Shown here piece by piece: positions 541-24,842 of a DNA stretch of 44,723 bases. The stretch lies in the IMG/VR virus record IMGVR_UViG_3300045988_035831; one strand, 5' to 3'. This DNA is from a virus. The notes under the pieces were generated by a model. It ran no database searches. It was not told the origin of the DNA and was given only the letters and a program-made list of their open reading frames with translations. The position numbers were made by a program, and so were the translations under genes. Positions within the stretch are counted from its first letter, which is position 1; every line of letters starts with the position of its first letter.

Positions 541-705
541 TCAATTATGTTTCTCAAACCACTCAGCAAGAGCCTTGCGGATAACCCAAGATGCAGAACG
601 TTCTTCACGTTCGCAGTAAGAAATCATCTGTCTGTACTGCTCTGGCTCAAAGCTGATCGTGGTCTTGATATACTTGTCCTTATCGTCCTTTTTCTTGTTC
701 GCCAT
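541..705 (-). CDS. Ribbon-helix-helix (CopG/Arc/MetJ-like) DNA-binding protein, 54 aa. It is below the ORF-track length cutoff.
   Basis: Manual translation: MANKKKDDKDKYIKTTISFEPEQYRQMISYCEREERSASWVIRKALAEWFEKHN. It shows a beta-strand, helix, helix pattern. GGAGGTGG lies 6 nt before the ATG. The antisense track ORF 547-759 looks spurious. Confidence 0.75.
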   Translation of the reverse strand: MANKKKDDKDKYIKTTISFEPEQYRQMISYCEREERSASWVIRKALAEWFEKHN

Positions 706-727
706 GCTGCCACCTCCCATCTAGTTA

Positions 728-1001: not shown

Positions 1002-2144
1002 GTGTCGCGAATGATGGCAAGAATCGGCAGAGGTGAGGATTATATTCTGACCAATGCGGATGCGTGGCGAATCAGAACATTGCAGGAATCTGGCGAATTG
1101 CTAGAGGACATTCTGGCAGAATTATCCAGATACACCAAGCGCGAACAACAGGAGCTTCTTGAAGCGTTTGAGGATGCCGGAATCACTGCAATGAACTACG
1201 ATGATAAGGTATACAAGGCGGCAGGATTAAGCCCTGTACCACTCGAACAGTCTCCGACTATGATAAGGCTCATGGAACGAAATATGCTTGCAACTATGGG
1301 CGATTGGAAGAATTTTACACGAACAACCGCAAGTGCTGCTCAAAGGCTCTATATCGAGCAATGCGACCTTGCATATAATCATGTGATGACTGGGGCGGTT
1401 GGATATACGCAAGCCATCAAAGAGGCAGTTAACAATGTTGTGAGTGATGGCGTGACTGTCACATATCCATCTGGCAGAAAAGACACGATTGAAACAGCGG
1501 TTGCACGTTCTGTCAGAACTGGCGTGGCTCAGGCTACGGGAGATATATCCCTAAAACGCATGGAAGAAATGGACTGGGATTTAATTCTAGTCAGTGCTCA
1601 CATAGGAGCCAGAACGGGTGATGGCGGCGAGAATCCCGGAAATCACTCATGGTGGCAAGGCAAGATATACTCTCGTTCTGGCAAGAGTAAGAAATTTCCG
1701 CCATTCTCATTGACCGGATACGGAACGGCAAGCGGACTGTCAGGGATCAACTGTCGGCATAGTTTTGGAGCCAGTGATGGAGAATTTAATCCTTATGCAG
1801 AACTATCAGCACAGGATAAAGCTGATAAAGGCAAACAGTACGAAAAGGAACAGAGACAACGTACTTATGAACGGAGAATCAGAAAGACAAAGAGAGAAGT
1901 TCTTGGAATGCAAGCAGGAGTTGACAATGCACCGAATGAAAAGGCAAAATTCGCATTACAGCAAGACCTTGACCGAAAGTCTTTTCTTCTCCAAAAGCAA
2001 AATGCTGCATATAAAGATTACTGCAAGCAGAACGACCTGAGAGAGCTGCAAGACCGGCTCATGATTGCTAAGTGGAACCGCCAGAACGCCGCAAAAGCCA
2101 GAGGAGCGGCGAAACGGTATAAAACAGCAAAGGGGATTGACTGA
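1002..2144 (+). CDS. Minor head / head-morphogenesis protein (SPP1 gp7 / Mu F-like).
   Basis: Position is close behind the portal. Motifs include GENPGNHSWWQGKIY and NCRHS, with a K/R-rich C-terminal tail. The frame is open back to 909 and reads ...SPEYLRQITEGSEQIAEELHQYIISEI, so the true start may be a non-ATG codon upstream (SD AGAGGTGA at 901-908). Confidence 0.85.
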   Translation: MSRMMARIGRGEDYILTNADAWRIRTLQESGELLEDILAELSRYTKREQQELLEAFEDAGITAMNYDDKVYKAAGLSPVPLEQSPTMIRLMERNMLATMGDWKNFTRTTASAAQRLYIEQCDLAYNHVMTGAVGYTQAIKEAVNNVVSDGVTVTYPSGRKDTIETAVARSVRTGVAQATGDISLKRMEEMDWDLILVSAHIGARTGDGGENPGNHSWWQGKIYSRSGKSKKFPPFSLTGYGTASGLSGINCRHSFGASDGEFNPYAELSAQDKADKGKQYEKEQRQRTYERRIRKTKREVLGMQAGVDNAPNEKAKFALQQDLDRKSFLLQKQNAAYKDYCKQNDLRELQDRLMIAKWNRQNAAKARGAAKRYKTAKGID

Positions 2145-2530
2145 TGGACAGATGGGAATATTACAATCCGAATCCTGCCGGGAATCGAGTCGGAGATTGT
2201 GCTGTCCGGGCAATATGTAAAGCAACCGGTTTTGACTGGGAAACGGTATTCACCGGACTGATGGTGCAGGCGTGTGCTCTGTCAGATATGCCAAGCGCAA
2301 ATTATGTCTGGGGAGCGTACCTCTATAAGCATGGATACAGGCGCAAGCTGATAGAACAATCAGAGCGATATATCTATACAGTCAACGACTTTTGCACAGA
2401 CCATCCGACAGGCACATATATTCTCTGCATAGATGGTCATGTGGTAACGGTACAAGGCGGAAAATATTTCGATACATGGGATAGCGGTAATGAGATCCCA
2501 GTATATTACTGGGAAAGGGAGAATAAATGA
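2144..2530 (+). CDS. Putative papain-fold cysteine peptidase/amidase-like protein (Cys-His-Asp candidates).
   Basis: ATGA overlap with the upstream gene. YNPNPAGNRVGDCAVRAI (Cys), then DGHVVTV (His) and DTWD (Asp), spaced as in NlpC/P60 or C39-like folds. The fold call is from memory only. Confidence 0.6.
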   Translation: MDRWEYYNPNPAGNRVGDCAVRAICKATGFDWETVFTGLMVQACALSDMPSANYVWGAYLYKHGYRRKLIEQSERYIYTVNDFCTDHPTGTYILCIDGHVVTVQGGKYFDTWDSGNEIPVYYWERENK

Positions 2531-2832
2531 GCATATCAGAATTTGTACAAATATTCCTTTCTATCTGTGGAGGGGTGTCCATTGTCGGAGGGGCGGCAGC
2601 TGTAATCTTTAAGTGGATTACACCGGCATTCCGACTTAATAAGCGAGTAGAGACACTGGAAGAACATGACAAACGAGATTACGAGAGTCTTCAAAGGATT
2701 GCAGAACGTGATTCATTGATTCTGGAAGTGTTGTCAACCATGCTGGACAGTCAGATTAGTGGGAATAATGTTGAGGAGTTAAAAAAAACAAAACAGAAGC
2801 TCACGGAGTATCTTGCACAGAATCAGCGTTAG
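2527..2832 (+). CDS. N-terminally membrane-anchored coiled-coil protein.
   Basis: Overlapping start (ATGA). The TM segment is FVQIFLSICGGVSIVGGAAAVIF, followed by a charged helical region. Confidence 0.7.
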   Translation: MSISEFVQIFLSICGGVSIVGGAAAVIFKWITPAFRLNKRVETLEEHDKRDYESLQRIAERDSLILEVLSTMLDSQISGNNVEELKKTKQKLTEYLAQNQR

Positions 2833-2852
2833 CATTAGTAAGGGGTATACTT

Positions 2853-3053
2853 ATGAAGTTATATGTGTTCACGAAGAAAGATATAGACAGGTTCTTAGCA
2901 GAGTGTAATTTTACACCGGACGAAGAAAAACTGTTCCGGCTGAGATGCAAGGAATATACACTCGAATACTGCGCTGAACAGATGAATGTGAGCATATCCA
3001 CGGCGAAACGGTTGAGCCGCCGGGTAAACAATAAAATAATTAAAGTATGCTAA
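2853..3053 (+). CDS. Small HTH protein, sigma-70 region-4-like.
   Basis: 66 aa. EEKLFRLRCKEYTLEYCAEQMNVSISTAKRLSRRVNNKI resembles a region-4/LuxR-type HTH. A terminator follows. Confidence 0.65.
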   Translation: MKLYVFTKKDIDRFLAECNFTPDEEKLFRLRCKEYTLEYCAEQMNVSISTAKRLSRRVNNKIIKVC

Positions 3054-3096
3054 AAAAAGTAAGGAGAGGATATTTTTACCCTCTCCCATTTTTTAA
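3052..3096. terminator. Bidirectional rho-independent terminator.
   Basis: Stem ggagagg (3063-3069) / cctctcc (3080-3086), flanked by A7 on the left and T6 on the right. It sits between convergent genes ending at 3053 (+) and 3093 (-). Confidence 0.7.
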
Positions 3097-3824
3097 CAAA
3101 AATCTTCTTTTACAACCCTTTCAAGTAGTTTTATCACATATTCTGGTGGAGTTCGTTTGCCACCCTCCCAGTTTTCTATGCTCCTTTTAGGAATGCCATA
3201 TTTTTCAGAAAAAGCTTGCTGCGTAAGTCCAGATAACGTTCTAATTTCGTGAAAATCAAGAGGATCTGAAGGAACTTTTTCGGGAAATACATCCTCTTCT
3301 TTTACCTGATATGTGAAGAATCCCATTGAGGACGGAAGGATTCTGAAATAGAATACCTCATCCTCTTCTTCTATCCAGGTTTGCTGTAAAAATATTTTCG
3401 GACACCATTCATCTAATGCAAACTTTTCATCTGAATCAGAGTAAACAACATAAGAACATAAATTTCCTGTGTCGGATTTCATTCTCTTCATCTCGTTATA
3501 GATGAATCTGGTCCTGACATATCTAACTATACTATGCACTTGTTCTACTCTGAGTTCTGGAAATAAGGCTTCGATTTGCTTATAAATCTTATTCCACAGA
3601 CATGCATGGTACTTACTATCTAATTCAACCGGTATGTCGATATAACCGCTGCTACGAACTGACAAAAATCGGTACACTGCATCAATTATTTCCTCGTCTC
3701 TAACCGGAGAAATCAATTCTGCATCATCTGGAAAATCAAATGGCAAAAGGCTTGATTTCTCCTGATTCTCAAGATCCTGCTTTACCATGCTCAAGAATTT
3801 TTCGTATTCATATTTTTTCAACAT
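3093..3824 (-). CDS. Unknown N-terminal domain fused to a C-terminal XRE/MqsA-HigA-like HTH (moron gene B).
   Basis: 243 aa. The C-terminus IRTLSGLTQQAFSEKYGIPKRSIENWEGGKRTPPEYVIKLLERV is a classic XRE-type HTH. It starts 1 nt after gene A. Confidence 0.85.
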   Translation of the reverse strand: MLKKYEYEKFLSMVKQDLENQEKSSLLPFDFPDDAELISPVRDEEIIDAVYRFLSVRSSGYIDIPVELDSKYHACLWNKIYKQIEALFPELRVEQVHSIVRYVRTRFIYNEMKRMKSDTGNLCSYVVYSDSDEKFALDEWCPKIFLQQTWIEEEDEVFYFRILPSSMGFFTYQVKEEDVFPEKVPSDPLDFHEIRTLSGLTQQAFSEKYGIPKRSIENWEGGKRTPPEYVIKLLERVVKEDFC

Positions 3825-3825
3825 C

Positions 3826-4269
3826 TTATTTCCACTCCATCTTTTCTTTATAATCGTTCAAAGCTTCTTTAAATTTTCTTTCGCAAATATTGTTTTTACA
3901 ATCAATATCACTATTTAATTCAACGTCTAATTCTCTTGGACTGTAAGCATAATAACGGTTTTCGATAAACCATTTTGCTTCCTTGATCTCGTAAATAGTC
4001 TCCATGGCTTTTTTCATGCGCTCCGGCATTTTCTTTCTGCCTTTGGATTCATGAAAATTAATGCAACTGTTTCCATACTCGATCATTTTCTTGCGGATAT
4101 CCTCAGCCCAGGCGATCTGTTTTGGACTGCCAACCAGTTCCGGTAATTCTTTACACATACCTTTTGCTTCCCTCCATGCTTTCTTGAGACCAGAGGAAAT
4201 AGACATTCTCATTTTCTTGACTAACTCCCATGCTCTTTTCATTATTGCTGATAGATTATATTTCTTCAC
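3826..4269 (-). CDS. Helical K/E-rich protein of unknown function (moron gene A).
   Basis: 147 aa. GTG start with AAGGAGG 8 nt upstream. Motifs IMKRAWELVKK, LKKAWREAK and GSPKQIAWAEDIRKK. Confidence 0.85.
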   Translation of the reverse strand: MKKYNLSAIMKRAWELVKKMRMSISSGLKKAWREAKGMCKELPELVGSPKQIAWAEDIRKKMIEYGNSCINFHESKGRKKMPERMKKAMETIYEIKEAKWFIENRYYAYSPRELDVELNSDIDCKNNICERKFKEALNDYKEKMEWK

Positions 4270-4311
4270 GTCATTTTCCTCCTTAGTTTTCTTGCTCCTC
4301 TTTCTGATATT

Positions 4312-4340
4312 ATAATACCACTCGTTGAGTGATAAGTCAA
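4312..4340 (-). promoter_or_regulatory. Near-consensus sigma-70 promoter driving the antisense two-gene moron.
   Basis: On the minus strand: TTGACT (4340-4335), a 17-nt spacer, then TATTAT (4317-4312). Confidence 0.65.
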
Positions 4341-4406
4341 TACTTTTTTGAACTTTTTAGATTGATGCATCTATGCAAAAATATAATCAGAAAGGCGGTG
4401 TATAAG

Positions 4407-4874
4407 ATGGCATTATATAACAATCCTTATCAATATAGTTTTGGCGTTCCGGGGCAGATGAACCAGTTTCAGCAACAGCCTGTCCAGATGCCGGCTCAAC
4501 CAGTACAACAACCACAACAGAATAACAATGGTATCCTGTGGGTATCTGGCGAAGTAGGCGCAAAATCCTATCTGGTAGCGCCCGGGACAAGTGTCTTGCT
4601 GATGGATTCAGAATCAGAGAAATTCTATATAAAATCCACAGACGTTTCCGGTATGCCACAGCCATTACGGACGTTTGAATACCATGAGGTAGGCACTCAG
4701 ATGCCGCCTAAACAGCCTGTTCAGAACATGGACAAATATGTCACCAGACAGGAATATGACGATTTAAAGGGCAAATATGAAATTATCATAAACCGATTAA
4801 ATTCTTTTTCTGAACCTGTTAGGGTTAATACCACACAGGAATCAGCAGCCAAGGGAGGAAATGCAGATGAGTAA
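4407..4874 (+). CDS. Q/P-rich protein of unknown function.
   Basis: The start was moved to ATG 4407 (AGGCGGTG SD). MALYNNPYQ..QFQQQPVQMPAQPVQQPQQNNNGILWVSGEVGAKSYLVAPGTSVLLMDSESEKFYIKS. Confidence 0.8.
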   Translation: MALYNNPYQYSFGVPGQMNQFQQQPVQMPAQPVQQPQQNNNGILWVSGEVGAKSYLVAPGTSVLLMDSESEKFYIKSTDVSGMPQPLRTFEYHEVGTQMPPKQPVQNMDKYVTRQEYDDLKGKYEIIINRLNSFSEPVRVNTTQESAAKGGNADE

Positions 4875-5088
4875 TCCATTATTTAACGTGCTTGGTGGTG
4901 GGATGCCGCAGGGAAACGGACCAATGCAGATGATACAGCAGTTTATGCAGTTTAAGCAGAATTTCAAGGGAGACCCGAAGGAAGAAGTTCAGAAGATGTT
5001 ACAGTCTGGACGGATTTCTCAGCAGCAACTTAATCAAGTTCAACAGATGGCAGGACAATTCCAGCACATGTTGAAAAGAATGAAATAG
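4861..5088 (+). CDS. Small Q/M-rich protein.
   Basis: 75 aa, overlapping the upstream stop. GGGMPQGNGPMQMIQQFMQFKQNF...QQQLNQVQQMAGQFQ. Confidence 0.7.
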   Translation: MQMSNPLFNVLGGGMPQGNGPMQMIQQFMQFKQNFKGDPKEEVQKMLQSGRISQQQLNQVQQMAGQFQHMLKRMK

Positions 5089-5140
5089 TACATTACAATC
5101 TGGCCAGATTGATGTAAATACACAAAAAGGAGATTATATT

Positions 5141-5920
5141 ATGGATGGAAATTATAGCTTAGCAGATATTGCCGCTGCTACTGGAAACGGTAGAAATAAT
5201 GACGGCATGTTTGGCGGAGATGGTAGCTGGTGGATTATTGTTTTATTCATTTTTGCTTTCTTCGGATGGGGAAACAACGGATGGGGCAATAACGGCAATG
5301 GCGGCGGATATGCAGCCACAGCAGCTACTCAGGCAGATATCCAGAGAGGATTTGACAATTCCGCGGTAATCAGCAAGCTTGACGGAATCAACAGCGGCCT
5401 GTGCGACGGCTTTTATGCCATGAATAATGGTATGCTTACCGGATTTAATGGAATCAACACAAACATCATGCAGACTGGCTTCGGAATCCAGCAGGCAATT
5501 AATGCTGATACTGTAGCGAACATGCGGAACACCAATGATTTACAGGCACAGCTTGCGAACTGCTGTTGTGAAACCAGAGAAGCTATCCAGGGTGTAAATT
5601 ACAATATGGCGCAGAACACCTGTGCATTGCAGAATACGATGAACAGCAACACAAGAGACATTATTGACAGCCAGAATGCAGGAACAAGAGCGATTCTTGA
5701 TTATCTCTGCAATGAAAAAATTTCTAACCTTCAGGCTGAAAACAATGACCTCAGACGTGCTGCATCTCAGGACCGTCAGAGTGCATTGCTCACAACTGCA
5801 ATGGCTTCTCAGACACAGCAGCTTATTAATGCGATTAATCCAGCACCGATCCCGGCATATCAGGTTCCTAACCCGAACACATTTTATGGATGCGGATGCA
5901 ACACCGGATGCAATTGCTGA
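5141..5920 (+). CDS. Membrane-anchored G/N/W-, N/Q- and Cys-rich protein.
   Basis: SD AAAGGAG. TM segment WWIIVLFIFAFFGW, then GNNGWGNNGNGGG, an internal CCC, and the C-terminus YGCGCNTGCNC. Confidence 0.8.
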   Translation: MDGNYSLADIAAATGNGRNNDGMFGGDGSWWIIVLFIFAFFGWGNNGWGNNGNGGGYAATAATQADIQRGFDNSAVISKLDGINSGLCDGFYAMNNGMLTGFNGINTNIMQTGFGIQQAINADTVANMRNTNDLQAQLANCCCETREAIQGVNYNMAQNTCALQNTMNSNTRDIIDSQNAGTRAILDYLCNEKISNLQAENNDLRRAASQDRQSALLTTAMASQTQQLINAINPAPIPAYQVPNPNTFYGCGCNTGCNC

Positions 5921-5984
5921 TAACTTCATATTGAGAGTATCTTTCGATTGATTCGGATGTCGGCTTATGCCGTATTACACAGAG

Positions 5985-6008
5985 GGGCAGGCTGAGACCT
6001 GTCCTTTT
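5985..6008 (+). terminator. Rho-independent terminator.
   Basis: gggcagg-ctgaga-cctgtcc forms a 7-bp stem with one G-U pair, followed by TTTT. Confidence 0.55.
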
Positions 6009-6030
6009 GTGATATGAAAGGAGTATTTTT

Positions 6031-6453
6031 ATGGCAGAATTTACAAGCGTAGCTGCTCAGACTGTAGCAGTAAATGGAAACGTAGTATTTTCAAACACAG
6101 CAGTTAAGGGTTCTAACTGCATTCAGCACAGAGAGGGAAGTGGAATTATTACACTGAGAGGACTGACTAATCAGTGTAAAGCAAGATTCTTCGTGGATTT
6201 TTCTGGTAATATCGCAATTCCAACAGGCGGTACTGTTGAAGCTATTTCTCTGGCTATTGCAATCTCTGGCGAACCGGTTCTTTCTTCTCAGATGATTTCC
6301 ACACCGGCAGCAGTAGACCAGTACAACAATGTGTCCTCTGGCATCTATATTGATGTGCCTCGCGGATGTTGCGTTAACATCGCAGTAGAGAACACAAGCG
6401 ATCAGGCAATTTCTGTTGCGAACGCAAATATTATCGTGACCAGAGAAGCGTAG
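6031..6453 (+). CDS. All-beta protein resembling C1q/TNF-like (BclA C-terminal-domain-like) knobs.
   Basis: 140 aa, SD AAAGGAG. Alternating beta pattern: VAVNGNVVFSN..GIITLRG..ARFFVDFSGNIAIP..ISLAIAISGEPV..IYIDVPRGCCVNIAVEN..NANIIVT. The family call is from memory. Confidence 0.75.
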   Translation: MAEFTSVAAQTVAVNGNVVFSNTAVKGSNCIQHREGSGIITLRGLTNQCKARFFVDFSGNIAIPTGGTVEAISLAIAISGEPVLSSQMISTPAAVDQYNNVSSGIYIDVPRGCCVNIAVENTSDQAISVANANIIVTREA

Positions 6454-6464
6454 GAGGTGTGATT

Positions 6465-7019
6465 ATGAGAGATATTAAAGACTTATGCGCAAGAATCGAA
6501 GATGAACTGTCCAAAATCGCTGATAATGGGCTAAACACTGGAAATCTGGAAATGACATACAAGCTGATTGATATGTACAAAGATATCAAGAATACGCAGT
6601 ACTGGGACAAAAAGGTGGAATATTACAACACTGTCCTTGATGAGATGCGTGGTGGATACAATGACGATTACAGCGAACGCGGAAGAAAGCGCGACAGCAT
6701 GGGGAGATACAGCTCAAATGACAGCAGAATGATGCCGGATTACGACCGGGGCAGTTCTTATGCCAGACGTGGTGAGCATTATGTTAGAGGGCATTACAGC
6801 CGTTCTGACGGACGAGACGCTTATGACGACTATATGACACAGAAACAGAGTTATCGTTCCGGCAAATCTGAGGACTGCAAGAGGAAGATGCTTGCCGCTC
6901 TGGAAGAACACCTTGACGAACTCACTACAGAGATGAGTGATATGTCCAAGGATGCAGAGTGCCGGGAAGAACGTGATCTTGTAAAGAGATACGTAGAAAA
7001 ACTCCGTGATATGCTCTAA
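6465..7019 (+). CDS. Protein with helical ends and an R/D/Y/S-rich low-complexity core.
   Basis: ATG 6465 lies 7 nt after GGAGG (the track started at GTG 6459). The core reads RGRKRDSMGRYSSNDSRMMPDYDRGSSYARRGEHYVRGHYSRSDGRDAYDDY. Confidence 0.8.
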   Translation: MRDIKDLCARIEDELSKIADNGLNTGNLEMTYKLIDMYKDIKNTQYWDKKVEYYNTVLDEMRGGYNDDYSERGRKRDSMGRYSSNDSRMMPDYDRGSSYARRGEHYVRGHYSRSDGRDAYDDYMTQKQSYRSGKSEDCKRKMLAALEEHLDELTTEMSDMSKDAECREERDLVKRYVEKLRDML

Positions 7020-7357
7020 TTAGCCAAAACATGTACCACAACTTTTTGAAGGTTCTGTGGTAAAATATATTCATAAGGAAGATTCGTAAGTGGTTACAGC
7101 CGCTTGACATAGACATTTTTCATTGATTCCTCCTTTCTTCGATACGTGTCCTTAATAGAAAATGCAGTGTTTAGCTAACACAAGACGCATGAGGTTGAAA
7201 AGCGGATGCAATTTCCGGCACGTATCATTACTGTCTATGCGATCATATAGACAGTACGCACCTCCTTGTAAAAGGTAAATGGGCGGACAGATGCCCGAAA
7301 CAACTCGTGGCAGGCATGACACGTTAAACACCTTGCTAACCCGGGAATCCGGGTTTA

Positions 7358-7558: not shown

Positions 7559-7642
7559 TGTGGCTTCGCCAAGCGGTAAGGCACCGGACTTTGACTCCGG
7601 GAGAGGAACACTCATTCATTGGTTCGAATTCAATAGCCACAG
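7559..7642 (+). tRNA. tRNA with a UUG (Gln) anticodon on a long-variable-arm (type II-like) scaffold.
   Basis: Acceptor tgtggct/agccaca (7 bp), D arm gcc-aagcggtaa-ggc, anticodon arm ccgga-CUUUGAC-tccgg, a 17-nt variable region, T arm attgg-ttcgaat-tcaat, discriminator G. No CCA is encoded. Confidence 0.65.
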
Positions 7643-7719
7643 TTACCCTGCCAGTGGTCTAACTGGCTTAATCCAATACCTGCGGCGGCAGGTCAATAAA
7701 CACGACCAGGAGGATGTAT

Positions 7720-22210: not shown

Positions 22211-22230
22211 GTTAGTCACAGTTAGTCACA
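22211..22230. repeat. Tandem perfect arm-type repeats (GTTAGTCACA x2) overlapping the integrase stop.
   Basis: gttagtcacagttagtcaca read directly from the sequence. Confidence 0.6.
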
Positions 22231-23387
22231 AATGGGACTTTTATTTTCTCTATTTCTTCCCGGAGTTCTTCCAGTGTCCTGTGGCCGTACACAGCGTTCG
22301 TGACATCGTTTCCGAACGAATGTCCCAGCATCCTCTTCCGGTCGTTCTCCCGGACTCCGTATTTTTCGCACAAGGCAGAAAAGGTATGTCGGCAATCGTG
22401 CGGCGTGTGCTTCGGGTTGCCGGTTATATTCAAGCGTTCCAGTGTAGGGTAGAAGAGTTTATCCCTGTGATGCTTTTGCGTATACATTAGAAGCTTTCCT
22501 TGAGTTGCTAGTTTTGACTGGACAAAGCTATATACGGCTGAATGAATAGGTACAATCCTGTCTTTTCCGGCTTTTGTTTTAATACCGCCTTGATAATATT
22601 TTTCTTCGAGATTAATTGAAAGCTTTGATACTTCGCCGATTCTCCAGCCAGAATAACACATGATCAGAATGAGCTGTACTTCTGGATCATCGGTGTTATT
22701 CCAGAGGATTTGCAATTCCTCATCCGAAAAGGGCGTGCCGTGTTCCGTATCATGAGGTGCATTGTTCCGAACATAGAGAGCTTTGTTTTCCGTGACAATT
22801 TCAGCATACATGGCGTACTTGTACATCTGCTTAAACAGTGTCAGTATCATCATTACGCTTTCTCTTTTGAGTGGACAGGTGTCTAATACCTCCTGCATGT
22901 CAGGAGCCTTTAAATCCTCAAATACGCGGTTGTGGAGTACTGCGCAGTTTGAATATCCATTCCGGTATGCGCTCTTCGAGCTGTATGATAGTTTTGTTCC
23001 CTCAGGGAACTTCCATTTCATGAATTGCTCATATACCTCTGAGAACGTCAATTTGTGCGTTTCCGGGTGTCTTTCCTCTGCGCCCTTAAATGTATTGTAG
23101 TCTGACAGAATGCGTCCTATAAGGGCGTCTGCGTCCGTTGTAGGGGCAATCTCAAGCTCTTTTTCCATGCCTGGCTTGTACGTCCCGGCTTTGTAAGCTG
23201 TCAGAACGGCGAACCCTTTCAGATAGTCGTCAACGTAGCAGATCGCAGGCGGGCGGATCACTTTTCCTGTTATGCCGTCAATCGTTGCCGGTGGGTGCAC
23301 TGCATAGCAGTTTCTTCGACCTTTGCCGAGATAACGGATAGACCCGAAACTATTTGGCAATTTCGGGTACTTCTTTCTTTTTGCCAT
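22212..23387 (-). CDS. int: Tyrosine integrase.
   Basis: 391 aa. Catalytic motifs WRIGE (Arg), HDCRHT (His-x-x-Arg) and LGHS...VYGH (Tyr). SD AAGGAGGA. Confidence 0.95.
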   Translation of the reverse strand: MAKRKKYPKLPNSFGSIRYLGKGRRNCYAVHPPATIDGITGKVIRPPAICYVDDYLKGFAVLTAYKAGTYKPGMEKELEIAPTTDADALIGRILSDYNTFKGAEERHPETHKLTFSEVYEQFMKWKFPEGTKLSYSSKSAYRNGYSNCAVLHNRVFEDLKAPDMQEVLDTCPLKRESVMMILTLFKQMYKYAMYAEIVTENKALYVRNNAPHDTEHGTPFSDEELQILWNNTDDPEVQLILIMCYSGWRIGEVSKLSINLEEKYYQGGIKTKAGKDRIVPIHSAVYSFVQSKLATQGKLLMYTQKHHRDKLFYPTLERLNITGNPKHTPHDCRHTFSALCEKYGVRENDRKRMLGHSFGNDVTNAVYGHRTLEELREEIEKIKVPFVTNCD

Positions 23388-23442: not shown

Positions 23443-24012
23443 TTACTCAATCTCGTCAATGTCAAAAGAATATCCAAGGACTTCTCCAACATCTGTGCAT
23501 TTTCCTTTTAATGTTACTTTATCGCCTTTGGTAAGAGATGCTGCCTTTGATTTTTGCTCGTCGTTTTTAATATTACACTGTACGCCGATGATTTCAAAAT
23601 CGCCGTCAGCTGTGAGGCTGATGTATTTTCCAGAGGCATCAATGTTGCTGAGATTTCCAGTGATCTCAAGATATTTGCCTTTGTATTTGTCAGATGCACC
23701 CATGGCGTTACTATCAAGATCGGACATCATATCATTAACAGAAACAGTAGTGTACTCGATTGGCGCAGCTTCTTCTTTTGGTTTAGTAGCAGTTTCTTTC
23801 TTTTCTGAAGAAGTAGCGGTTGCTGCGCTTTTATCTGATTCCGAATCACTTTCACCAGCTACAGCTCCGATGATAGCTCCGACAAGGATTATCAGCACAA
23901 CCCATTTGAGTTTTCCGCCTTTTAATTTCTTTCGGCATTGCGGGCAGACCTTAGCATCTGCCGGAATCTCTGTTTTACAATACTTGCATTTCTTTGTTTT
24001 TTCTTCGCTCAT
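23443..24012 (-). CDS. Zinc-ribbon, TM, S/T/E-rich linker and extracellular OB-fold-like domain protein.
   Basis: CKYCKTEIPADAKVCPQCRKK, TM segment WVVLIILVGAIIGAVAG, then AMGASDKYKGKYLEITGNLSNI (tRNA_anti-like OB pattern, from memory). Own SD; it starts 3 nt after the regulator gene. Confidence 0.85.
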   Translation of the reverse strand: MSEEKTKKCKYCKTEIPADAKVCPQCRKKLKGGKLKWVVLIILVGAIIGAVAGESDSESDKSAATATSSEKKETATKPKEEAAPIEYTTVSVNDMMSDLDSNAMGASDKYKGKYLEITGNLSNIDASGKYISLTADGDFEIIGVQCNIKNDEQKSKAASLTKGDKVTLKGKCTDVGEVLGYSFDIDEIE

Positions 24013-24015
24013 GCT

Positions 24016-24720
24016 TTATTTCCCTCCAATGACGTAGTTTTCATATTTTTCTCTTATTTTTGCAAGTTCTCTTTGCCTGATCGGGACGATCGCGCCAGAT
24101 ACCATCGTAAAAAAATGGCTTACTTCGCTTACCTCGTCCATATTAACTATATAGCTCTGGTGGCAGCGCAAAAATCTTCCGTCAAGACTCTTTTCGATAT
24201 CATTGAGCTTTCCTCGTTCCTTGTGCGATATTCCGCACGTGCAATGGATCATTATGTATTTGTTCTGGCTTTCGATGTATTCAATATGCCGGAATTCAGC
24301 TCTGTGAAAGTAGTCCTTGTTCTTGATAGTAAGCGTTTTTTCACGAATATTTTCAAGCGTCTGCTTAACAACTGAATACATTCTTCCATGCTCAGAGCCT
24401 TTAATGATGTAATGAACCGGCAGCACATCAAGTGCATCAAATACATATTCTTTGCGTTCTGTCCAAAAAGTGATATTTCCATAGTATCCGATTTTTCTTA
24501 ATCTTTTGGCAATCTCTATGCCATTTTCTCCGTTAATGGAGACATCAAGAATTATTATGTCATACCATTCACCATCTGAAACATCGTCGATCAAAGGCTT
24601 TCCGCTGGTGTAGGTGGTTAATGTATATCCACCATCACCATGCTCTTTTAGATATCGGTCAATGCTATTTTTGAAAATCTCAATCCGTAAATTATCATCG
24701 TCACAAATCGCAATTTTCAT
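24016..24720 (-). CDS. Orphan response regulator: receiver domain plus LytTR DNA-binding domain.
   Basis: MKIAICDDD (acidic pocket), IIILDVS (phospho-acceptor Asp), ITFWT, YIIKG (Lys). The LytTR part is HRAEFRHIEYIESQNKYIMIHC...FLRCHQSYIVNMDEV. The start was moved to ATG 24720. Confidence 0.9.
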   Translation of the reverse strand: MKIAICDDDNLRIEIFKNSIDRYLKEHGDGGYTLTTYTSGKPLIDDVSDGEWYDIIILDVSINGENGIEIAKRLRKIGYYGNITFWTERKEYVFDALDVLPVHYIIKGSEHGRMYSVVKQTLENIREKTLTIKNKDYFHRAEFRHIEYIESQNKYIMIHCTCGISHKERGKLNDIEKSLDGRFLRCHQSYIVNMDEVSEVSHFFTMVSGAIVPIRQRELAKIREKYENYVIGGK

Positions 24721-24842
24721 GTAAATCATTCCCTTGTAAACATTGTTTTCGACATTTGCAAAAAAAAGTGTTTAAATATGTTATTTTTATTATAGCATCG
24801 TTAAATTTAGTTGTAAATAGACGTTTTGAGGTGATTTATGAA

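Follow-up and report, generated by a model that had tools for sequence, protein, structure and literature searches.

Here, we analyzed a two-gene cassette in a phage sequence of 44,723 nucleotides (nt) from IMG/VR (IMGVR_UViG_3300045988_035831; this whole stretch is called the window below). The cassette (a moron) occupies positions 3052..4371 on the minus strand, as bounded by comparison with an empty site, and carries gene A (3826-4269, 147 amino acids (aa), GTG start) and gene B (3093-3824, 243 aa, ATG start), both antisense within plus-strand head genes. Gene A consists of an N-terminal module (N-module; aa 1-37, 4159..4269, minus strand) and a core (aa 38-147, 3829..4158, minus strand). 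Gene B consists of an alpha/beta N-terminal domain (N-domain; aa 1-185, 3270..3824, minus strand) and a C-terminal XRE helix-turn-helix (HTH) domain (aa 186-243, 3096..3269, minus strand), the latter predicted to be an autorepressor domain similar to anti-CRISPR-associated (Aca) proteins. On balance, our results moderately favor the view that the cassette is a mobile, self-regulated counter-defence operon, organized like the loci in which anti-CRISPR (acr) genes are paired with aca genes.

Layout, insertion and distribution of the cassette

A single nucleotide (base 3825) separates the stop codon of gene A from the start codon of gene B, which is translationally coupled to gene A. The two genes are preceded by a sigma-70-type promoter (4312..4340, minus strand), which is composed of the -35 hexamer TTGACT (4340-4335), a 17-nt spacer and the TG-extended -10 hexamer TATTAT (4317-4312) and agrees with the consensus at 10 of 12 positions. 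Promoter-like hexamer sites as such were not more frequent than expected by chance (17 in 10 kb versus 23 expected from shuffled sequence). The block comprising the promoter, the operator described below and the 5' untranslated region recurred in over 40 related loci, among them Blautia prophages in which its genomic position differs, and it was this conservation across loci, not the hexamer counts, that led us to judge the promoter as real. The conserved 5' leader (4270..4311, minus strand) holds the ribosome-binding site AAGGAGG (4284-4278), spaced 8 nt from the GTG of gene A, and in the form AATATCAGAAAGAGGA(A/G)CAAGAAA...AAGGAGG it travels with the promoter before differing cargo genes. 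At the other end of the cassette lies an intrinsic terminator (3052..3087, both strands) with the stem GGGAGAGGGTA/TATCCTCTCCT and a T-run on each strand; on the minus strand, the stem (3087-3062) has 11 pairs and is followed by the T-run. It was called bidirectional because it folds on both strands (minus strand, -17.5 kcal/mol, z -4.7; plus strand, -14.4 kcal/mol, z -3.8). An Rfam scan of the cassette returned no RNA family. Sequence alignment with the related phage MT835739.1 indicated that the plus-strand gene downstream probably starts at ATG 4407 and not at GTG 4329, which would therefore place the promoter in intergenic DNA.

MT835739.1 (L052), a phage from human faeces, also revealed how the cassette came to lie here. 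It is 87-88% identical to the window over 1019-3051 and 4372-6496, and in place of window positions 3052-4371 it has 55 base pairs (bp) that include a plus-strand terminator of their own. Because a phage with 87% identity holds only these 55 bp at the same site, the cassette is a true insertion. Its G+C content is 34-37%, compared with 43-48% in the flanks, and its terminator assumes the role of the displaced plus-strand terminator of the empty site. An earlier note on this DNA had described the two antisense genes 1 nt apart, the TTGACT/17 nt/TATTAT promoter with an AAGGAGG-GTG start, a clean bidirectional terminator and a moron inside the late operon, all of which are borne out by these observations.

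Homologues of B (n=57) and A (n=332) were found mostly in human-gut metagenomes, the named sources including Hungatella hathewayi and metagenome-assembled genomes of Blautia massiliensis. The pair occurs in several settings. In related phages (L010-L012 and 32 IMG/VR loci), it occupies the same site as here, antisense between the genes for the minor capsid and scaffold proteins. Elsewhere, it lies at the end of a B. massiliensis prophage, beside endolysin and holin genes and abutting host genes. In another setting, the A core and an HTH-less B (176-186 aa) are co-directional in long runs of small genes, with a P22-type antirepressor gene (P22_AR_N) and integrases as neighbours. A scan of representative genomes matched a single species, Ruminococcus sp. 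AM36-2AA, which has the HTH-less form. The earlier note had raised the question of whether the pair is conserved as a unit, and the answer is divided. Wherever a close B homologue came with upstream sequence (44 loci), an A core was present ~625 nt upstream. On the other hand, A-family genes also stand alone at Hungatella prophage ends or with other partners without B, and the B N-domain has remote homologues that are found without A, together with other cargo.

Predicted operator, gene B and neighbouring cassettes

The predicted operator (4316..4334, minus strand) is a 19-bp dyad, TATCACTCAACGAGTGGTA, with the structure TATCACTC-AAC-GAGTGGTA, which fills the promoter spacer and overlaps the -10 hexamer. 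Its core, TCACTCAACGAGTGG (TCACTC-AAC-GAGTGG, 4318-4332), lies between -35 and -10. When generalized to the pattern TCACNCNNNGNGTGR, this core at the cassette promoter was the sole match in the 44.7-kb window (0.11 matches expected; at least one match in 7 of 100 shuffles). Across loci, the arms of the dyad read CACTC/GAGTG, CACCC/GGGTG, CACGC/GCGTG or mixtures of these, the best example having 8-bp arms (TATCACTC-AAT-GAGTGATA), and in several lineages the symmetry was retained through changes on both arms. The dyad was present in every checked locus with an HTH-bearing B, whereas it was absent from the 330 nt upstream in seven of seven loci with an HTH-less B. Because the HTH and the operator-bearing promoter strictly co-occur in the loci checked, and because AcrIF24 (discussed below) offers a precedent, the HTH of B very probably autorepresses the operon through the dyad, binding as a dimer. 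This regulatory half of our proposal is better supported than the rest of it.

Operons of remote B N-domain relatives (about 25-28% identity) also have CCAC...GTGG-type dyads in the promoter spacer, such as CCACCGA-T-TCGGTGG in L056 and CCACCC-ATT-GAGTGG in L054; at the latter locus, the last gene, for a 468-aa protein, ends in a fused HTH of the same subtype. Dyads in or near the promoter spacer were also observed at distant A-family genes without B (L045-L048, 3330-3500; L049-L051, 3400-3500). In L049-L051, ATTCGT-T-ACGAAT lies between TTGACT and TATAAT, and L045-L047 have three TAG[CTG]GCGCTA repeats beside a divergent ribbon-helix-helix gene.

The HTH of B matched PF01381 (HTH_3, E 2.8e-6, above the cut-off), and its fold matched those of HigA2, ImmR, P2 C, Aca10 and C.Kpn2I over about 50 residues. 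The nearest sequence models were those of MqsA and HigA-type antitoxins, in their HTH portion only: PF15731 (E 0.028, 15 bits versus 30, model positions 69-119) and TIGR03830 (24.5 bits versus a cut-off of 61.8, model positions 70-116). The CxxCG zinc ribbon of MqsA is absent from B. A search of PADLOC-DB v2 gave weak matches to the HTH alone (HTH_VI, RmrA; E 2e-4 or weaker). Gene B had previously been described as an unknown domain joined to an MqsA/HigA-like HTH. The architecture, a novel domain of ~185 aa followed by an XRE HTH, was confirmed, whereas the likeness to MqsA and HigA did not extend beyond the HTH, with scores below the family cut-offs and no zinc ribbon.

The N-domain of B matched nothing in Pfam, PHROG, PADLOC or NCBIfam and had no credible match in the PDB, where a profile search that included its remote homologues was also empty. 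It is rare: a hidden Markov model search with an HTH-less B profile found 15 clusters among 1.84 billion representative proteins, and these clusters had no annotated relatives, nor did Pfam return anything for the remote relatives. The domain occurs naturally without the HTH, as proteins of 176-186 aa. The AlphaFold2 model of B was poor (predicted local distance difference test score (pLDDT) 65, about 60 for the N-domain), and a Foldseek search of the PDB with this model gave no credible match for the N-domain. Since close B homologues always pair with the A core and the two genes are coupled, the N-domain may act jointly with A.

Many related phages have a second copy of the promoter, operator and leader ~125 nt after B, with other genes behind it. 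In L022 (4855-5559), these genes encode a 106-aa protein with an A-like N-module and a different C-terminus, followed by a 97-aa protein; in L028 (4855-5357), a 45-aa protein and then a free 54-aa HTH; and in L035 (4853-6230), proteins of 98, 179 and 97 aa and then a free 55-aa HTH. The free HTH proteins of 54-55 aa are 75-76% identical to residues 186-243 of B, and in proteins P0043-P0057 this HTH subtype is joined, at one end or the other, to numerous small domains that are unrelated. The promoter, operator and HTH are thus shared with unrelated cargo in L022, L028, L035, L054 and L056. The cassette site is a variable island of cassettes, and by analogy its variable cargo with a conserved small repressor, either free or fused, would follow the logic of anti-CRISPR/Aca loci.

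Gene A and its partial similarity to anti-CRISPR proteins

The AlphaFold2 model of gene A was all-helical (pLDDT 79), in agreement with the helical protein predicted earlier, and the motifs quoted at that time (KRAWE, KKAWREAK, GSPKQIAWAEDIR and NWEGGKRTPPEY) were all present in the translations. The N-module (MKKYNLSAIMKRAWELVKK..ISSGLKKAWREAK) was nearly invariant among the 120 relatives listed, the remaining sequence being divergent or unrelated. It is missing in many natural variants that start at MCKELPEL, and it has been deleted in L023, L026, L037 and L042, leaving the exact Met38 start. The core, with the motifs GSPKQIAWAEDIR and AKWFIENR, also stands alone as proteins of 110-116 aa. 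A Shine-Dalgarno-like GGAGGG was observed within gene A, 11 nt before the ATG of Met38 (MCKELPEL..., 4158-4200, minus strand), so the core could be translated separately from this start. The N-module is also found joined to a different, W-x-K-x-G-K-x-R-x-Y domain (e.g. WEKYGKSRTYFK) that replaces the GSxKQ core; such fusions are P0163, P0165, P0168, P0171, P0173, P0177 and L035 4919-5218.

Searches of Pfam, PHROG and NCBIfam with A gave sub-threshold matches only and PADLOC-DB v2 gave none, and no toxin or nuclease family was matched in any of these databases. Foldseek with the A model returned no significant PDB match and no named BFVD match. When a profile built from 48 diverse members of the A family was compared with all PDB sequences, the only natural proteins matched were AcrIE7 (E 1.1e-4) and AcrIF23 (E 0.077). 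These values were E 0.013 and 0.67, respectively, with an earlier A profile, and the AcrIE7 match weakened to E 0.44 with a narrow profile of core-only A proteins. We used a shuffle test as a substitute for profile-profile comparison with AcrIE7, as no AcrIE7 homologues were obtained by tblastn against phages or by a protein search with a 51-aa fragment. The bit scores of AcrIE7 (25.4) and AcrIF23 (17.6) exceeded those of all 5000 composition-matched shuffles (maxima 12.8 and 11.8, respectively).

The similarity is centered on two motifs, which read GSPKQIAWAEDIR and AKWFIENR in gene A, GSEKQVNWAKSII and ARVIIDNR in AcrIE7, and GTARQKEWAEKIR and AKFWIENR in AcrIF23. GSxKQxxWA and IENR thus make up a module of the A core that is common to AcrIE7 and AcrIF23. 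Residues 1-52 of AcrIE7 (structures PDB 9KJB, 9L2Q, 9LA6 and 9N3X) align with residues about 45-106 of A, which places K6 and R49 of AcrIE7 opposite K50 and R105 of A. In the A family, position 50 is K in 46 of the 48 members and position 105 is R or K in 43. Mutation of K6 or R49 in AcrIE7 abolished or reduced the binding of single-stranded DNA (ssDNA) and the inhibition of Cas3 cleavage (PMC12002350). AcrIE7 is also similar in size to the A core (106 versus 110 aa) and is likewise encoded upstream of an aca gene, whereas A has an additional N-module of 37 aa. AcrIE7 forms a seven-helix bundle, whose AlphaFold prediction deviates from the crystal structure according to its authors (PMC12002350). 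AcrIF23 blocks ssDNA cleavage by Cas2/3 through a different loop (PMC9270243); its residues 58-134 align weakly with A, and both motifs are present in this region.

Other families share further parts of A. Of the 48 A-family members, 39 matched the NCBIfam AcrIIA3 model (NF033948) over its initial 50-76 positions (best E 3.6e-4), compared with 5 for the next most frequent family. The matched part is the N-module, extending in some members into the GSxKQ helix, and the cargo of neighbouring cassettes matched the AcrIIA3 model as well. PF07410 (Phage_Gp111) was matched by 32 of the 48 members at E up to 1 (best E 2.2e-4), in some cases over nearly the full length. Neither gene product had seemed to belong to a family that could be named. 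This still holds for the N-domain of B, whereas the modules of A recur in AcrIE7, AcrIF23 and AcrIIA3.

Proposed function, alternative explanations and comparison with known systems

Several features of the cassette are those of acr-aca loci: a small gene lies directly upstream of a same-strand HTH gene on a mobile element, the strong promoter has an inverted-repeat operator between -35 and -10, and the HTH is conserved whereas the upstream cargo varies. In the model that we propose, host RNA polymerase would fire the near-consensus promoter upon entry of the phage DNA, and A, whose core bears the GSxKQ-WA...IENR module of AcrIE7 and AcrIF23, would be made. Because this module is shared with inhibitors of Cas3-type nucleases, we predict that A either protects ssDNA or R-loop intermediates against a host nuclease or blocks the nuclease itself; judging from the partial homology, the likeliest target would be a CRISPR-Cas system of type I in the Lachnospiraceae host. 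A narrower claim, namely that ssDNA shielding by A serves to block a type I Cas3-type nuclease specifically, is rather doubtful. B would then be made by coupling, its N-domain serving as a second cargo that could be another inhibitor or could work as a partner to A. Once sufficient protein is present, a dimer of the B HTH would bind the spacer dyad and shut off the operon, which would keep strong antisense transcription out of the head genes, and the bidirectional terminator would insulate the insert from the late operon.

Several observations weigh against this proposal. The similarity between A and the Acrs is partial. For AcrIE7, it comprises ~50 residues, without full-length homology and with the C-terminal halves unaligned; for AcrIF23, it comprises two motifs, and nothing in A corresponds to the Cas2/3-binding loop (residues 17-28). 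In the Foldseek search with the A model, AcrIE7 ranked second and third, at a non-significant E of about 1 and template modelling (TM) scores of 0.33-0.44. All scores for the AcrIIA3 model were below the cut-off of 70 bits (9.7 for A of the window, 21.6 for its best relative), and A scored 11.9 bits against the PF07410 gathering score of 27.1, with all scored relatives also below it. Because all these scores are below the curated cut-offs, A does not belong to the AcrIIA3 or PF07410 family; it has modules in common with them. The GSxKQ-WA...IENR module could also be a general nucleic-acid-binding element with other uses. B has no detectable sequence similarity to AcrIF24 or any other Acr, and its structural model is poor. 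As for the operator, clean compensatory covariation of the dyad was considered and rejected, mixed half-sites (CACCC...GAGTG) being common; the variable position of the dyad is probably weakly specified. Finally, many prophage morons, and toxin-antitoxin pairs too, typically form autoregulated HTH operons.

The earlier note had regarded the architecture as typical of defence, exclusion or toxin-antitoxin cassettes. Our sequence comparisons instead point to counter-defence rather than defence, because the modules of A recur in Acrs, the same promoter, operator and HTH serve unrelated cargo, A and the B N-domain are not obligate partners, and PADLOC returned generic HTH matches only. The layout could suit a type II toxin-antitoxin system of the HigBA/MqsRA order, with A as the toxin and B as an antitoxin that neutralises it through the N-domain and autoregulates through the HTH. 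The putative toxin gene is first and is coupled to an HTH gene whose nearest models are MqsA/HigA-type antitoxins, the operator lies within the promoter, the A core directly precedes B in all 44 loci with close B homologues, the pair persists where the HTH has been lost, and the carrier is a temperate phage. We nevertheless consider this reading unlikely: A-family genes occur alone at prophage ends or with other partners, where a true toxin could not be maintained, and remote B N-domain homologues without A also indicate that the pairing is not obligate. Moreover, the same promoter and HTH are used for unrelated cargo, the zinc ribbon of MqsA is missing and the scores are under the family cut-offs, A matches no toxin or nuclease family, and the only characterised proteins that share parts with it are anti-CRISPR inhibitors.

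This last point also tells against a prophage defence or superinfection-exclusion cassette, expressed in the lysogen to protect the host from other phages, as those relatives of A that could be detected act in counter-defence. Several features of the moron would be expected of such a cassette: it has a promoter and terminator of its own, is carried by a temperate phage that encodes an integrase and a repressor, is low in G+C, is present or absent among close relatives and, in Blautia, lies at a prophage end by the lysis genes, a classic place for lysogenic conversion. However, no ATPase, nuclease, membrane or sensor domain was recognised in either protein, the PADLOC matches are confined to generic HTHs, the combination of variable cargo with a conserved small HTH repressor is an acr-aca design, and the HTH-less copies lie among small same-strand genes by an antirepressor (P22_AR_N), in a region that looks early or accessory. 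A defence role is thus about as improbable as a toxin-antitoxin pair. It is even less probable that B is an ordinary developmental regulator that controls phage genes with A as its cofactor, with no role in host-phage conflict: the cassette is missing from an 87%-identical phage, the single operator in the genome is at the cassette's own promoter, the same pair occupies other positions in unrelated elements, and the B N-domain is very rare. This explanation would agree with the genuine XRE HTH of B, the sigma-70 region 4-like gene that adjoins the cassette and the constant position of the cassette across many related phages.

To our knowledge, as far as a limited literature search allows us to assess, few anti-CRISPR or other counter-defence genes are known for phages that infect the dominant Firmicutes of the gut, and searches for such genes rely on markers such as aca. 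If the counter-defence proposal is true, the HTH together with the CCAC/TCAC...GTGG/GTGA operator would be a new aca-like marker for Lachnospiraceae phages, pointing to candidate inhibitors in the A family, in the B N-domain and among the genes carried by neighbouring cassettes. Our results also suggest that three Acrs described as unrelated or as novel folds may have in common a small module that binds ssDNA through its conserved Lys and Arg, which would make a common Acr mechanism testable. Nature provides ready controls, in that phages either carry or lack the cassette and B either carries or lacks the HTH. More tentatively, AcrIE7 (type I-E), AcrIF23 (I-F), probably AcrIIA3 (II-A), PF07410 and hundreds of Firmicute phage proteins might form one cross-phylum superfamily, in which the module would be a general ssDNA shield against host nucleases and add-on parts would give specificity; the antisense island would then be an interchangeable rack of cassettes under one operator and HTH, and the B N-domain a new inhibitor fold. 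No report of a relationship between AcrIE7 and AcrIF23 was found in the literature searched, against which the link among AcrIE7, AcrIF23, AcrIIA3, PF07410 and the Firmicute phage family appears to be new.

The remainder of the window is that of a temperate phage, siphovirus-like by gene content, with a minor capsid protein 2 gene in the head region (1002-2144), an integrase gene (22212-23387, minus strand), and genes for a CHAP endolysin and an XRE repressor. The plus-strand gene that directly adjoins the cassette (2853-3053) encodes a 66-aa sigma-70 region 4-like protein (TIGR02937, E 3e-5, below the cut-off; phrog_1190, sigma factor) and is kept in related phages, MT835739.1 with its empty site among them. 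A plus-strand gene (5141-5920) in the variable region that separates the cassette from the scaffold gene encodes a 259-aa protein without a Pfam match; one segment of it is rich in Gly, Asn and Trp (WGNNGWGNNGNGGG), and its tail is rich in Cys (GCGCNTGCNC). Upstream of the minor capsid gene, a second small antisense gene (541-720, minus strand) encodes a 59-aa Arc-like ribbon-helix-helix protein. It is served by a TG-extended promoter of its own (TTGCCA-17-TATAGT, 756-728) and resembles another moron or a regulator. The gap between the head-region open reading frames that end at 7019 and start at 7714 holds a RAGATH-21 RNA (Rfam RF03097, 78.5 bits, above the gathering score; 7141-7226) and a tRNA-Gln (anticodon ttg; 7559-7642), both on the plus strand. 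On the minus strand of the lysogeny region, a LytTR-type response regulator (24016-24729) and, beside the integrase, a protein with a zinc ribbon and a tRNA_anti-like OB-fold (23443-24012) are unusual phage cargo. The related phage L010 has a gene (579-1094) that adjoins its holin gene and matches PF11195, a Tad2-like family of Thoeris anti-defence proteins, which suggests further counter-defence genes in this phage group.

Among known systems, MqsA and HigA2 resemble B in having a C-terminal XRE HTH after an N-terminal partner-binding region and in being encoded by the second gene of an autoregulated operon. In contrast, B does not have the zinc ribbon of MqsA, no known toxin family is encoded upstream of it, and neither the A family nor the B N-domain family is confined to the A-B pairing. 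Closer to the architecture of B are the Acr-Aca fusions AcrIIA1, AcrIIA13-15 and AcrIIA24/29/31/32, in which a cargo domain is fused to a repressor HTH (N-terminal in AcrIIA1). They have no sequence relationship to B, for whose N-domain a cargo role is predicted from sequence. AcrIIA32 is fused and AcrIIA32.1 unfused, which parallels the 243-aa and 176-186-aa forms of B; Acr-Aca fusions with unfused counterparts have been documented (PMC8934645).

The closest system is the acrIF23-acrIF24 operon of a Pseudomonas aeruginosa prophage, which is driven by a strong promoter whose -35 and -10 elements flank an inverted repeat; AcrIF24, with N-terminal domains and a C-terminal HTH, binds this repeat, represses the operon and inhibits Cascade, acting as an Acr as well as an Aca (PMC9638941). 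Like the cassette, it is a two-gene operon whose promoter has a 17-nt spacer with an inverted repeat within. In both cases, the first gene encodes a small helical protein (AcrIF23, 161 aa, PDB 7FIA (PMC9270243); A, 147 aa) with the motifs G[ST]xxQxxWAxxIR and FWIENR/WFIENR, and the second a protein with non-DNA-binding N-terminal domains and a C-terminal HTH (AcrIF24, 228 aa; B, 243 aa). However, neither the PDB sequence matches of B (E up to 10) nor the 50 best Foldseek matches of its low-confidence model included AcrIF24, so that the two have only domain order in common, and the N-terminus of A is unlike that of AcrIF23. The host here is probably a Firmicute rather than a Proteobacterium, and the cassette, known from sequence alone, differs in lying antisense to late genes and in having its own bidirectional terminator. 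The kind of system, represented by acr-aca operons and Acr-Aca fusions, is known, whereas its members here are new.

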